This document shows, piece after piece, positions 38,139 to 41,621 of a stretch of 64,000 nucleotides of DNA (positions are counted from its first letter, which is position 1; every line of letters starts with the position of its first letter). This stretch comes from Escherichia coli (GTDB lineage: Bacteria > Pseudomonadota > Gammaproteobacteria > Enterobacterales > Enterobacteriaceae): NCBI RefSeq assembly GCF_048403405.1, contig NZ_CP183129.1; one strand, given 5' to 3'. The notes beneath the pieces were generated by a model. The model was not told where the DNA came from and made no database searches. It saw only the letters and a program-made list of their open reading frames with translations. The translations under genes were made by a program, and so were the position numbers.

Positions 38139-39092
38139 TCAACCACGGGATAATCTTGTTTCTATTCCCTGAACTCTTTCGTCTATTAACCTTTCAATAA
38201 CAGATATTTTATCTGACTTGTAAAATTCAACCAGAAAATCCAGACGCTCTTTATGCGTATCACTGATAGACTCCCGTTCCCGTTTTTCAGAAAGTTTACG
38301 TCTGAAGTTTTTTTGGTAAAACGCTTTATTTATTTTCTTTACCGCTTTCTGCTGGAGATCATCATCCGCTGACCATAAATCCAGCATGGAATAAACGGCG
38401 TGATAGGTTTCTACACTATTAAGTGGTTCCGGGATCTGAACGGGGTCCAACTGGTTTCCTATATTACTACCGTGCTCTTTCTGGAATTTATTAATGTAAT
38501 TATAAGCCCATATACAGACTTCGTCATTATCCTCATTAAGCCAGCGTAATTTTATTCTCTTATGTTCATTTGCCCTCCAGAATACAAGCCTCTCATATAG
38601 CCACTGTCTCATCAACGGTGCCTGATTAGTCTCAATATTAATATAGTCCAGTAATGCAACGATGATTGAGTATCTTTCGCTATGGCTTGCAGGAGAATCT
38701 GTTATTCCGGCTTTCTGATACCAGTTAATGTTTAAATTTGTGCCCAGCTTTTCGTTAATTGACTCCATACAGCGGTAATCAAGACACATCACGCCCCATA
38801 GCCAGAACGTCGCTCTTTCATTTTCTTTTAACCAACTAAAATATTTCTCCGGCAGAAGCATCGTATTAATCGACAGCTCCAGTGAGCGAATAAAATTACT
38901 TCGCTGAATGGGATCGGGATACCCGGCCTCGAGGGCTGTATTAATAATTCTCTCCGAAAGAGATGTATCTGGATTGTTCCCGTCAAACGCAAATTGATTT
39001 GCTCCCTGAATGTTTTTCCTGATGTACCAGAAAAGAAACCTGCTGGTTCGGATGTCCTTCACTGCTATTGATGAGCGCACATTAACGGCCAT
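38139..39092 (-). CDS. Hypothetical protein (317 aa), no recognised domain
   Basis: Long uninterrupted ORF; Trp/Tyr-rich, C-terminal charged KR/E-rich tail. Confidence 0.45.
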   Translation of the reverse strand: MAVNVRSSIAVKDIRTSRFLFWYIRKNIQGANQFAFDGNNPDTSLSERIINTALEAGYPDPIQRSNFIRSLELSINTMLLPEKYFSWLKENERATFWLWGVMCLDYRCMESINEKLGTNLNINWYQKAGITDSPASHSERYSIIVALLDYINIETNQAPLMRQWLYERLVFWRANEHKRIKLRWLNEDNDEVCIWAYNYINKFQKEHGSNIGNQLDPVQIPEPLNSVETYHAVYSMLDLWSADDDLQQKAVKKINKAFYQKNFRRKLSEKRERESISDTHKERLDFLVEFYKSDKISVIERLIDERVQGIETRLSRG

Positions 39093-39683
39093 TGTTCTAC
39101 CTCGTCATCCTTGTTAAATCAGTCGAAATCAATAGCGTAATTATGACGTGTTTTCGAAGTAAAACCGTAGCAATAAATCAATAAAAGTGGAAAACACGTA
39201 GTAATATCGTATTATTCCATAGTAATAGAGTACCATTAACGTAGTTTTTTATTTATCACCATACTCACAGCTTCCGCCCGTAGAAAACGGCTGGATAGTC
39301 TTCAATTTTTCCACGTATAGCCCTGGTGGCTTTACGGGTGAAACCTCCCAGGATAACGAGTTGACATCTGGAAGATGTCATTCATGACCGCACTCATAGA
39401 TTAAATCAATGTATTAATTATAACTTAAGTGTAAAACTCTTTGTCTTCAAGAACAGATAATTAACTACGAACACCAGTAAATACCGGGCTTCTACTCTTT
39501 TTATCACCCTTTCTTTATGAATCAACATTGCCGGTATTAATATTATGTTTATCACTCATTCATTAGATTCAGCATATAGAGGGATGACACCAGAGACAGG
39601 GAAAAGTAATCCAGATCGGCATAGTTCAGTGAAAAGTTACTACAGCACTTATGGATATGTAACCAACCACAAGGAACTGAAGC

Positions 39684-40298
39684 ATGAAACTGAATGAACG
39701 ATATGGCAAGCCTAATGCACACTATATGAAACGTCTGGAAGAGATTACCCGTTATGCGATGGATGATTACGCCAGAATACTGGCTTTCAGAGTGGATTTA
39801 TTACTGCCAGTGGATAATAGCCATAAAGGGTATGACTCAGCGGTTATTACCCGTTTTATAGCCTCACTGAAAGCGCAGATAGCCGCATATTTACAACGGC
39901 GCAGGAGAGACGGTAAACGTGTTTATCCCTGTAAGCTGCGATATGCATGGGTAAGAGAATTTGGTGAACTGAATGGCAACAAGCATTATCACATGCTGTT
40001 GCTGGTTAATCGGGAAGTATTCAGAAACACCATGCTGAATACGGAGAATTCAGCGCAACCTCGCGGATTGCTGGTGGGAATGGTGGCGCGGGCATGGGCT
40101 GTGGCGCTTAGGCGTACCGGAGATATGGCAAATAAAGTCCCCTTTCATTTACCGGGCGTCTCTTATGAACTTGATCGCAGAAATGGCACAAATACGGACT
40201 TTTTCCGCAGCTACATATATCACATCAGTTATCTGGCGAAGGAGTACACCAAAAACCACGATGACGGTGAACGTAACTTTGGTTGTAGTCAGGGATAA
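39684..40298 (+). CDS. YagK/YfjJ-family (inovirus Gp2-like) protein
   Basis: 204-aa protein resembling the prophage YagK/YfjJ family (…YHMLLLVNREVF…); located just upstream of an alpA-like gene as in CP4-57. Confidence 0.65.
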   Translation: MKLNERYGKPNAHYMKRLEEITRYAMDDYARILAFRVDLLLPVDNSHKGYDSAVITRFIASLKAQIAAYLQRRRRDGKRVYPCKLRYAWVREFGELNGNKHYHMLLLVNREVFRNTMLNTENSAQPRGLLVGMVARAWAVALRRTGDMANKVPFHLPGVSYELDRRNGTNTDFFRSYIYHISYLAKEYTKNHDDGERNFGCSQG

Positions 40299-40415
40299 GT
40301 AATTTATTACCGGAGAAGTGATTGTAATGGCGGAGTATGCAACATCATCTTAAATCAACGGGTTAGTGTTGCTGCTCCTGTCTTTTATCAACGTAAAGAC
40401 AGAAGGACAATCGTC

Positions 40416-40634
40416 ATGAGCAATCAACTGAATACCGATACTGACCTGATGAATGACAAACTGGTGACGATGGCATTTATTACCACGTTTACTGGCCTGA
40501 CTGACAAATGGTTTTATAAACTGATTAGTGAAGGCAAGTTTCCAAAGCCTATCAAACTGGGGCGTAGTTCCCGCTGGCGGGAAAGTGAAGTTAAACGCTG
40601 GCTGACGGAACGTATTGAAGAATCCCGCTATTAA
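40416..40634 (+). CDS. alpA: AlpA-family phage transcriptional regulator (MerR-like HTH)
   Basis: 72-aa protein with the AlpA-type HTH: LVTMAFITTFTGLTDKWFYKLISEGKFPKPIKLGRSSRWRESEVKRWL. Confidence 0.75.
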   Translation: MSNQLNTDTDLMNDKLVTMAFITTFTGLTDKWFYKLISEGKFPKPIKLGRSSRWRESEVKRWLTERIEESRY

Positions 40635-40835
40635 TCCCCTGACACTATCTCTACACGCTTTACCCGTAACGCTATATCAGTGAGCGCCTGACAGGACCGT
40701 TGCGGTGCATCTATCGACGCGTAACTTCATTATACCCGGATGAAATACATTTCGTTTAACGTTGTCGAAAAATAATTAACCGGGGAATAGCCTCCTTATT
40801 TAGCAGGAATTCCCCGGATGCTGCTACAGGTAAAA

Positions 40836-41621
40836 TTAGGAATTAAATGTCCAGCTCCCCGTATCGGTCACAATATCAGCTTCAATGATACGGTCACACT
40901 TCATATATTTGAACGTAGCCACATCACCGAATTTATATTTGGCTGGCAGGGTTCTGTTACCGACGCTCTCCATTTTACAGTTCCCTCTGTTTACCCGAAT
41001 GGATTTCAGCACCACGTTGTCATCAGTGATAGTGAGCTGAATAACACCATATTTGGTATTCCAGCCTTCATTGCTGACGGAGCTGCCGAACTGAACTTTA
41101 AACGGTGGTGTCGTAGATTGCTGTGCCTGCTGTTGCTGAGAGGGATCAGGTTTATTAGCCTGCTGGCTACCAACGCCATTAATGCCATTCTGAAGGAGGC
41201 TTCTGGAAACCTTAATGGTACCCGGCTTGCATGATACTGTGCTGGTTTCCTGCCCCATTGCATTCATGACAGTGTAATAAGCATCACCTGTACCATCATA
41301 TTCTGAGTAATTGACTGCAACCGCGCCTTCGATATCTTCATTTTCTCCACGTAATGTGAAAGAAGCGGTTCCTGCTCCCGGATTAGCCGCCAGAATCTGT
41401 TTCGCTTCGCCGGAAGGAATATCCAGTTTAATAACAGAGCCGCTCTCTTCGGAGTCACCGCCAGGATTTTCAAAACTGATATAAACGGTATTGCTGACGT
41501 GGCTGAGTGTCATTTGCTCGCCGTTATCAAGCATACATTGCAGGTCATAGGCCCCGACTGCATAAGCAGGGTGGAATGCAAATAAAGATACAAACAATGC
41601 AGGTATAATGATTAGTTTCAT
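40836..41621 (-). CDS. Secreted hypothetical protein with signal peptide and Gln-rich linker
   Basis: N-terminal signal peptide MKLIIIPALFVSLFAFHPAYA; central QQQQAQQ low-complexity linker; several Cys. Confidence 0.5.
   Translation of the reverse strand: MKLIIIPALFVSLFAFHPAYAVGAYDLQCMLDNGEQMTLSHVSNTVYISFENPGGDSEESGSVIKLDIPSGEAKQILAANPGAGTASFTLRGENEDIEGAVAVNYSEYDGTGDAYYTVMNAMGQETSTVSCKPGTIKVSRSLLQNGINGVGSQQANKPDPSQQQQAQQSTTPPFKVQFGSSVSNEGWNTKYGVIQLTITDDNVVLKSIRVNRGNCKMESVGNRTLPAKYKFGDVATFKYMKCDRIIEADIVTDTGSWTFNS

Follow-up and report, generated by a model that had tools for sequence, protein, structure and literature searches.

In a stretch of 64,000 nucleotides of Escherichia coli DNA (NCBI RefSeq assembly GCF_048403405.1, contig NZ_CP183129.1; the whole stretch is referred to here as the window), two minus-strand open reading frames (ORFs) that are annotated as hypothetical proteins can be brought together in a single reading, to which we give a probability of about one half. 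The first, ORF317, would be a DNA-binding regulator that belongs to the backbone of a genomic island and acts on its own promoter and on the divergent region beside it, and the second, ORF261, would be a periplasmic protein carried as cargo in a variable slot. The window carries a leuX/fim-side genomic island of E. coli, with a variable part filled with defence genes and a conserved, 'CP4-like' backbone; according to the annotation of the neighbourhood, the host element adjoins fim and nan. The two genes are:

38139-39092, minus strand: ORF317 (WP_000290408.1), intact ORF of 317 amino acids (aa) with an ATG start; 'hypothetical protein' in RefSeq
40836-41621, minus strand: ORF261 (WP_000766852.1), intact ORF of 261 aa with an ATG start; 'hypothetical protein' in RefSeq

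Conservation of the two genes

An earlier note on this DNA had described both ORFs as intact, and their coordinates, lengths and ATG starts bear this out. The ratio of nonsynonymous to synonymous substitution rates (dN/dS) is 0.095 for ORF317 and 0.11–0.12 for ORF261 against orthologues at a synonymous divergence (dS) of 0.6–1.0, and is 0.10 for YagK and 0.04 for the DUF932 protein encoded nearby. With values of about 0.1, similar to that of YagK, ORF317 and ORF261 are real genes, with purifying selection on both.

The description of the two proteins as orphans has to be given up. A word-indexed search found 12 close clusters for ORF317, and an exhaustive hidden Markov model search with the alignment of these close clusters extended this to 337 representative clusters (E<=1e-3), which with few exceptions are 290–350 aa long and align over their full length; with at least 337 clusters of ~300-340-aa proteins in its family, ORF317 is not an orphan. 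The named members are all from Enterobacterales and 'hypothetical', with the exception of one that NCBI names 'transcriptional regulator'. The close subfamily is sparsely distributed, as a genome scan with its alignment found it in two species-representative genomes only (Enterobacter sp. RIT418 and Serratia marcescens MSU97), and no relative of ORF317 was found in the phage genomes searched. ORF261 has some 90 clusters, in Enterobacterales and Pseudomonas. In the literature searched, neither protein accession is mentioned, and the YagK-side module is uncharacterised.

The same note had seen no recognisable domains, and this holds in part. Neither protein has a direct match in Pfam, NCBIfam or PADLOC (no family of PADLOC-DB 2.0 at E<=1), and in direct scans of both against Pfam, NCBIfam, PHROGs, PADLOC and PDB sequences the sole match was that of the ORF261 C-terminus to phrog_36014 (E 9e-21). 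Direct scans of ORF317 thus agree with the claim, while this match and a family-level alignment of ORF317 to ribbon-helix-helix (RHH) proteins, described below, do not.

ORF317 in the island backbone

Read along the minus strand, the backbone consists of a WYL regulator, a frameshifted YeeP-type GTPase gene, ORF261, then yagK and alpA on the opposite strand, ORF317, and after it the genes for DUF932, RadC, CbeA, CbtA and DUF4942. ORF317 and ORF261 do flank the yagK/alpA-like genes, as had been noted. The genes nearest to ORF317 are:

39684-40298, plus strand: YagK/YfjJ (inovirus Gp2-like), divergent partner of ORF317 (PF11726, E 5e-38; PF23343, E 3e-7)
40416-40634, plus strand: AlpA-family helix-turn-helix protein of the excisionase/regulator type (PF05930, E 3e-10)
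37084-37902, minus strand: DUF932 (YfjQ/YafZ-like), first gene downstream of ORF317 (PF06067, E 4e-53; RefSeq)
down to 34929, minus strand: RadC, CbeA, CbtA and DUF4942, following DUF932 (RefSeq annotation)

This order is widely kept. Of 13 distinct loci, with identities down to 23%, 12 have the ORF317-family gene and a YagK/G2P-like gene in divergent orientation, the two being spaced by 0.6–2.1 kb of non-coding DNA across related loci, usually with AlpA. The ORF317-family gene heads a same-strand array whose members vary (GTPase, WYL, DUF932, antirestriction, RadC, DUF987, CbeA, CbtA, DUF4942/DUF5983), and the loci with the module include conjugative Klebsiella IncFIB/HI1B megaplasmids. Even in loci where the protein is only 23–29% identical, it keeps its slot between YagK/AlpA and DUF932/RadC/CbeA-CbtA; because this position is conserved across diverged loci, ORF317 is taken to be a component of the CP4-like backbone and not cargo, and is unlikely to be a defence effector. 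The suggestion that both proteins are candidates for accessory functions therefore needs to be narrowed: both are uncharacterised, but ORF317 sits in a fixed backbone module.

The cryptic prophages of E. coli K-12 share the backbone (DUF932, 83–84% identical, RadC, CbeA/CbtA, GTPase, WYL and YagK). In CP4-57, YfjH (318 aa, divergent from alpA) is like ORF317 in position and size. Homology between the two was considered and rejected (BLASTP E>=0.06; hhalign probability 0.4% for the ORF317 family against YfjH), and neither CP4-57 nor CP4-6 has an ORF317-family gene. Among the related loci compared (numbered with an L), that of Lelliottia amnigena (L017) has the same backbone, with DUF932 87%, ORF261 85% and YagK 56% identical, and differs in the ORF317 slot, where the encoded protein, of 318 aa, is not homologous to ORF317 and has a weak RHH_1 match at its N-terminus (L017:10509-11465). 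This case suggests that the slot is conserved by function and not by ancestry.

A probable DNA-binding segment in ORF317

The AlphaFold (AF2) model of ORF317, based on an alignment of 101 sequences and, like that of ORF261, a monomer prediction, is all-alpha with 14 helices, at a predicted local distance difference test score (pLDDT) of 95 and a predicted template modelling score (pTM) of 0.85. It comprises an N-terminal domain of ~245 aa, a conserved basic helix and a C-terminal segment of ~45 residues. No relative of the N-terminal domain was found among solved or viral structures (nothing at E<0.9 in the BFVD viral structures), and no enzymatic motif was found in ORF317; the family is without a Pfam model, and this domain would merit a family definition. 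The two parts behind it are:

38271-38363, minus strand: long basic helix, residues 244-274, containing NKAFYQKNFRRK (family alignments; AF2 model)
38145-38279, minus strand: probable RHH segment, residues ~272-316 (AF2 helices and family-level matches)

No other stretch is as conserved across the family as the basic helix, in which A257, Q260 and R264 are nearly invariant. The protein had been described as a cytoplasmic one, rich in tryptophan and with a charged tail, which agrees with its 10 Trp (3.2%) and with 19 K+R and 12 D+E in the last 70 residues. In the model, the C-terminus has a short strand (274-277, of which 275-277 are non-helical), a helix (278-291), a turn and a second helix (295-316), in the order of strand, helix A, tight turn and helix B over ~45 residues; these predicted helices fit an RHH whose strand would form only in the dimer. 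When 101 family members were scanned against Pfam, 17 matched PF10723 (RepB-RCR_reg) and six RHH_1 at E<=0.01 (best 3e-5), and in eight members scanned singly the PF10723 matches always lay in the last ~45 residues. The family profile, compared with PDB, matched the RHH repressors SvtR (E 0.0037) and CopG (E 0.4) over the same C-terminal positions. These last ~45 residues align as strand-helix-turn-helix with CopG of pMV158, PF10723, PF01402, SvtR (2kel), CopG (2cpg) and MazE4 (5xe3). Several matches, each weak and made at the level of the family, probably add up to an RHH, and we regard it as likely that the charged tail of ORF317 is a DNA-binding motif of this kind.

Classical RHH repressors are 45–100 aa long, or have the RHH at the N-terminus. 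ORF317 is unlike them in that the predicted RHH is C-terminal in a protein of 317 aa, behind a ~245-aa helical domain without a known relative. It is like the copG-repB arrangement in that its gene lies beside an HUH Rep-type gene and has short repeats upstream, as at RHH operators.

The ORF317–yagK intergenic region

The candidate sites of ORF317 action lie in the region between the two divergent genes:

39093-39683: divergent intergenic region between ORF317 and yagK, AT-rich, 591 bp (sequence)
39166-39170, 39197-39201, 39240-39244 and 39279-39283, minus strand: four same-strand CTACG repeats, candidate operator (cross-locus conservation)
39421-39432, minus strand: conserved 12-nt block ACACTTAAGTTA, pattern ACWCTYAAGTTA, mid-intergenic (one copy per locus)

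In an alignment of this region from six loci, whose ORF317 proteins are 44–82% identical, only the ~170 bp beside the ORF317 start can be aligned, and they contain ACTACG/GCTACG repeats followed by TCATAAT; the first three CTACG repeats of the window fall in the conserved ACTACG/GCTACG columns. No other cluster of at least three same-strand CTACG copies is present in the 64-kb window, and this one is equalled in 5 of 200 shuffles. The array is absent in L017, where the unrelated protein takes the place of ORF317 and where a perfect 13-bp inverted repeat (AAGGTGCAGCACT...AGTGCTGCACCTT) stands in for it just upstream of the slot gene (L017:10455-10500). It is also absent in L005, where ORF317 is 29% identical, yet YagK is 52% and AlpA 63% identical. 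Both L020 and L021, with ORF317 proteins 45–47% identical, have the array, and their YagK and AlpA are less close to those of the window than are those of L005. With L017 and L005 as controls, the array tracks ORF317 and not YagK or AlpA.

Upstream of distant ORF317-family genes there are other repeats: TAAAACC is found about five times in L007 (8700-8965) and in L008 (7770-8000), and TCTACAT three times at L013:3900-4110; of these, only the L007 repeats are individually significant (6/1000 shuffles).

The 12-nt block, whose copy in the window contains the palindrome ACTTAAGT, has a chance expectation of 0.01 in the window and occurs once per locus, always between YagK and the ORF317 position (in the window and at L017:10302-10313, L020:7971-7982, L022:5656-5667 and L024:5683-5694). 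Since it is kept in L017, which has no ORF317, it belongs to the YagK/backbone side; a promoter element, a YagK/AlpA site and a nick site are candidates for its role. Nothing in the 591 bp matched Rfam, and a promoter and terminator scan gave results at background level. Single-strand folding was no better than that of shuffles on either strand (z -0.5 and 0.0), and an Frpo-like single-strand promoter or a hairpin origin in the region was dropped on these grounds.

ORF261, an exported two-domain protein

ORF261 is divided as follows:

41559-41621, minus strand: signal peptide, residues 1-21 (n, h and c regions)
41172-41558, minus strand: N-terminal beta domain, residues 22-150 (alignment; AF2)
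41106-41171, minus strand: Gln-rich disordered linker, residues 151-172 (AF2)
40839-41105, minus strand: C-terminal beta domain, residues 173-261 (alignment; AF2)

The secreted nature and the Gln-rich linker that had been ascribed to it both hold up. The N-terminus, MKLIIIPALFVSLFAFHPAYA with VG following the cleavage site, has n, h and c regions, an A-x-A cleavage site and no lipobox (L-[AS]-[GA]-C); by inspection the signal peptide reads MK, LIIIPALFVSLFAF and HPAYA, with V next. The -3/-1 rule (small-x-Ala) is kept across 23 homologues, and from these sequence features ORF261 is almost certainly exported to the periplasm by a Sec signal peptide. The AF2 model is all-beta, with two domains, at a pLDDT of 75.7, which falls below 50 at residues 154-168 of the linker SQQANKPDPSQQQQAQQSTTPP (~151-172). 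Each domain carries a Cys pair conserved in the alignment, C29 and C131 in the N-terminal domain and the VNRxxC...C motif in the C-terminal one.

None of the homologues is annotated, and no Pfam domain was found in them, including relatives with other N- or C-terminal additions. Residues 166-259 match positions 24-114 of 115 in phrog_36014 (E 9.2e-21), and a tblastn search gave matches in 10 phage records, mostly of jumbo phages. The jumbo-phage homologues, such as those of Erwinia RisingSun (gp79, L018:2420-2767; 46% identity), Klebsiella Eowyn (LLCLJKAH_00202, L019:2381-2806) and Aeromonas CF8, have their own signal peptide or anchor; gp79 and the Eowyn protein are homologous to ORF261 over residues ~170-260 with a shared VNRGNC...C motif. 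The phage proteins, at 116-142 aa, correspond to the C-terminal domain only, to which ORF261 adds an unrelated N-terminal domain and the Gln-rich linker. Homology to characterised prophage proteins with non-defence roles, the result named as one that would speak against the two genes as accessory candidates, was not found, the phage relatives being uncharacterised jumbo-phage ORFs only.

The N-terminal domain also occurs alone in proteins of ~150 aa. In Serratia it is a separate ORF followed by an exported ORF of 241 aa (L016:8001-9224), and in Rahnella and Pectobacterium those two domains are fused in reverse order in one protein of 349-372 aa (P0237, P0239). This shows that the relatives of ORF261 are modular exported proteins, with domain shuffling among the exported proteins of islands.

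In the window and in L017, L022 and L016, the ORF261 gene lies 3–12 nt after a YeeP-type GTPase gene; in the window it starts 11 nt past the GTPase stop codon. The genes upstream of it are:

41633-42645, minus strand: YeeP/YkfA/YfjP-type GTPase, frameshifted pseudogene (two ORFs; MMR_HSR1, E 1e-12; RefSeq 'frameshifted')
42685-43440, minus strand: WYL-domain regulator heading the same-strand WYL-GTPase-ORF261 run (weak Pfam WYL and HTH_11 matches; PADLOC WYL, E 2e-16; 42% identical to K-12 YfjR)

The frameshift is located near 42154-42187, and intact 334-aa orthologues of the GTPase are found in L017 (Lelliottia) and L022 (another Enterobacteriaceae genome). Elsewhere the slot after the GTPase is taken by other proteins, namely YfjS/YfjT and YafY/YkfB in K-12, which are small exported proteins after WYL/GTPase genes in a position like that of ORF261, and DUF4234 and glycine-zipper proteins in other islands. 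Homology of ORF261 to YfjT or YfjS was rejected (BLASTP E>=0.06). ORF261 thus behaves as slot cargo, with a fixed position in Enterobacterales loci only and not in Pseudomonas. An ORF of 138 aa lies antisense within ORF261 (40818-41234, plus strand); it is without support and most likely spurious.

A proposed backbone regulator and a probable periplasmic cargo protein

Brought together, these observations lead to the following proposal. The target of ORF317, acting as an RHH dimer or as a higher oligomer assembled through its N-terminal domain, would be the ACTACG repeats that lie 80-150 bp upstream of its start. Binding of ORF317 there would set transcription of its own gene and of the DUF932/RadC/CbeA-CbtA array, and would probably also control yagK-alpA on the other side. 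ORF261 would leave the cytoplasm via Sec and be cleaved after AYA21; in its mature, periplasmic form, two beta domains stabilised by disulfides would be connected through the flexible Gln-rich linker. The protein would fill a variable 'envelope-protein slot' downstream of the GTPase, with which it is probably co-transcribed. As jumbo phages carry the C-terminal domain as a secreted protein by itself, one might hazard the guess that ORF261 binds a component of the envelope or of an incoming phage, e.g. in a superinfection-exclusion-like or inhibitor role.

A number of points weigh against this proposal. For the RHH, ORF317 of the window taken alone has no RHH match (E<=0.1) and the profile of the close subfamily has no significant match; the eight members scanned singly score 14–20 bits, under the PF10723 gathering score of 21; and a C-terminal position is unusual for an RHH. 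For the operator, no canonical sigma-70 promoter was found beside the CTACG repeats, and a k-mer-corrected test of the repeats is weak per locus (81/1000 in the window, 47/1000 in L024, 6/1000 in L020, and not significant in the others). Because the single-locus statistics are weak, the idea of an operator is drawn from cross-locus conservation and co-occurrence; the six loci with the footprint are homologous, and the conservation could reflect a promoter or the site of another protein. The gap of 236 bp between ORF317 and DUF932 leaves co-transcription undecided. For ORF261, the Pseudomonas homologues are not beside a GTPase gene, the upstream GTPase is a pseudogene here, which may affect ORF261 expression, and nothing directly ties the protein to phage exclusion.

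Alternative explanations

The alternative that survives best, though we consider it unlikely, is that ORF317 is an origin-binding accessory of YagK. The repeats would then be iterons, ORF317 would help to load YagK or control copy number, and YagK, as an HUH nickase, would nick an origin of replication or of transfer (oriT) in the intergenic region after excision driven by AlpA and the integrase. By analogy, the models would be the CopG/RepB-type RHH proteins of rolling-circle plasmids and the relaxosome accessories TraY, NikA and MbeC. In YagK/YfjJ, H101-Y-H103 and Y183xxK186xxxK190 are invariant in 13 diverged homologues (in the range L002, L003, L005–L024). The combination of H-Y-H and YxxKxxxK is the signature of HUH endonucleases. 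This signature is intact in YagK/YfjJ, whose family mostly goes by no other name than 'inovirus Gp2 family protein', and YagK also matches REP_ORF2-G2P. Further support comes from RepB-RCR_reg, a rolling-circle replication regulator, being the most frequent Pfam match in the ORF317 family, from a resemblance to TraM, and from the pairing of ORF317 with YagK over a long intergenic region, which varies less than anything else in the neighbourhood. The 12-nt block is kept even where ORF317 is replaced, and the whole module is also found on the conjugative Klebsiella megaplasmids.

Similar islands in Pseudomonas are mobile: I23, I44 and I55, of an integrase (IntY)/AlpA/Gp2-like/RadC type, have defence cargo and are reported in a preprint to be transduced by a jumbo phage (bioRxiv 10.1101/2024.08.29.610337). 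The island in the window is like them in being of the tyrosine-integrase type, with AlpA, an inovirus Gp2-like protein, RadC, defence cargo and no transfer genes, and unlike them in its E. coli host and integration site, the likeness being drawn from core gene types (10.1101/2024.08.29.610337).

Against the role at an origin, no hairpin or unusually structured DNA was found in the intergenic region, and the repeats adjoin the ORF317 start, 400–500 bp from yagK, as expected of an autoregulatory operator. In L017, YagK (56% identical) persists with an unrelated protein in the ORF317 slot, and because of this YagK has no strict need of the ORF317 family; K-12 YagK and YfjJ also do without an ORF317 partner. 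Unlike in the systems that combine TraY, TraM, NikA or MbeC with HUH relaxases, no oriT, nick site or hairpin was found here, YagK is Gp2/Rep-like and not a typed relaxase, and the island is without transfer genes. That ORF317 (as the RHH), YagK (as the HUH nickase), AlpA and the intergenic region form an unrecognised module for the control of replication or mobilisation seems more doubtful still.

About as doubtful is the idea that ORF261 acts in the periplasm as an inhibitor or as an immunity-type protein, directed for example at a lysozyme, peptidoglycan hydrolase, nuclease, or toxin of a type VI secretion system or colicin, or else a ligand-binding barrel, and has no part in phage exclusion. 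The predicted small, disulfide-bonded periplasmic beta domains and the domain shuffling among exported proteins would suit such a role, as would a Pseudomonas homologue that is encoded beside a secreted-type Endonuclease_NS gene. However, no known inhibitor or immunity family was matched, the Enterobacterales loci have no toxin gene next to ORF261, and the structural matches are generic.

There is still less to commend the view, towards which the earlier note leaned, that ORF317, ORF261 or both belong to the cargo of the island as defence or anti-defence effectors that have escaped annotation. The island is indeed dense in defence genes (AbiE, BREX-1, HEC-01, PDC-like genes), in related loci ORF317 heads an array with antirestriction and RadC genes, and the C-terminal domain of ORF261 is common to phages. 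Neither protein matches a known defence family in PADLOC, however, and ORF317 has a fixed backbone position in place of a variable cargo slot, no enzymatic motif and no phage homologue by sequence or structure. Finally, decay of both genes into non-functional remnants of a cryptic element, to which the frameshifted GTPase next to them and the insertion sequence (IS) elements that interrupt the segment in some strains might point, is very improbable, with both ORFs intact, dN/dS near 0.1 at dS 0.6–1.0, and the ORF317 family full-length across hundreds of clusters.

Other genes and features of the island

Several E. coli chromosomes carry the 3.7-kb segment with the two genes at 100% identity, and it is found in 218 of 5,426 complete genomes; in Nissle 1917, ABU 83972 and ATCC 25922 it is 98% identical, and in some strains it is broken up by IS elements. 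The defence genes in the variable part of the island are those of AbiEi/AbiEii, an HNH/type-IV-like nuclease, BREX-1 with an embedded HEC-01 pair, and PDC-like genes, and PADLOC matches among the neighbours of ORF317 and ORF261 are to AbiE, HEC-01, PDC-S57 and WYL. The HEC-01 pair is a two-gene insert in the BREX-1 operon between pglX and pglZ (52775-54459, minus strand; PADLOC HEC-01A, E 1e-181, and HEC-01B, E 5e-100). The interval from the WYL gene to an IS3 remnant contains four small same-strand ORFs (44037-46181, plus strand), one of which matches PDC-M14A (E 4e-9), with a GIY-YIG protein that matches PDC-S57 (E 2.5e-28); they may be an uncharacterised candidate defence cluster. Far from ORF317 and ORF261, at 12001-13000 of the window, the GC content falls to 0.33 within a stretch otherwise at ~0.5.

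Implications for CP4-like islands

In Enterobacterales, defence systems and virulence genes are carried by CP4-like islands as commonly as by almost any other kind of element, and the backbone of these islands is made up mostly of domains of unknown function (DUFs). Current understanding of them is not overturned here, and two 'hypothetical proteins' become testable hypotheses. The ORF317 family, paired with the HUH-type YagK and heading the DUF932 array, offers a testable handle on the regulation of these islands and possibly on their movement. Were the replication or mobilisation module to prove true, excised CP4-like defence islands and the copies on megaplasmids could undergo rolling-circle replication or be picked up by a conjugative plasmid or jumbo phage; ORF317 would then be a specificity factor for the origin or operator, with recognition repeats that co-evolve with it. 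ORF261 is a further example of exported cargo behind the island GTPase, linked to the secreted proteins of jumbo phages, and a side possibility is that it is a jumbo-phage-derived periplasmic factor in the interplay between helper and island.

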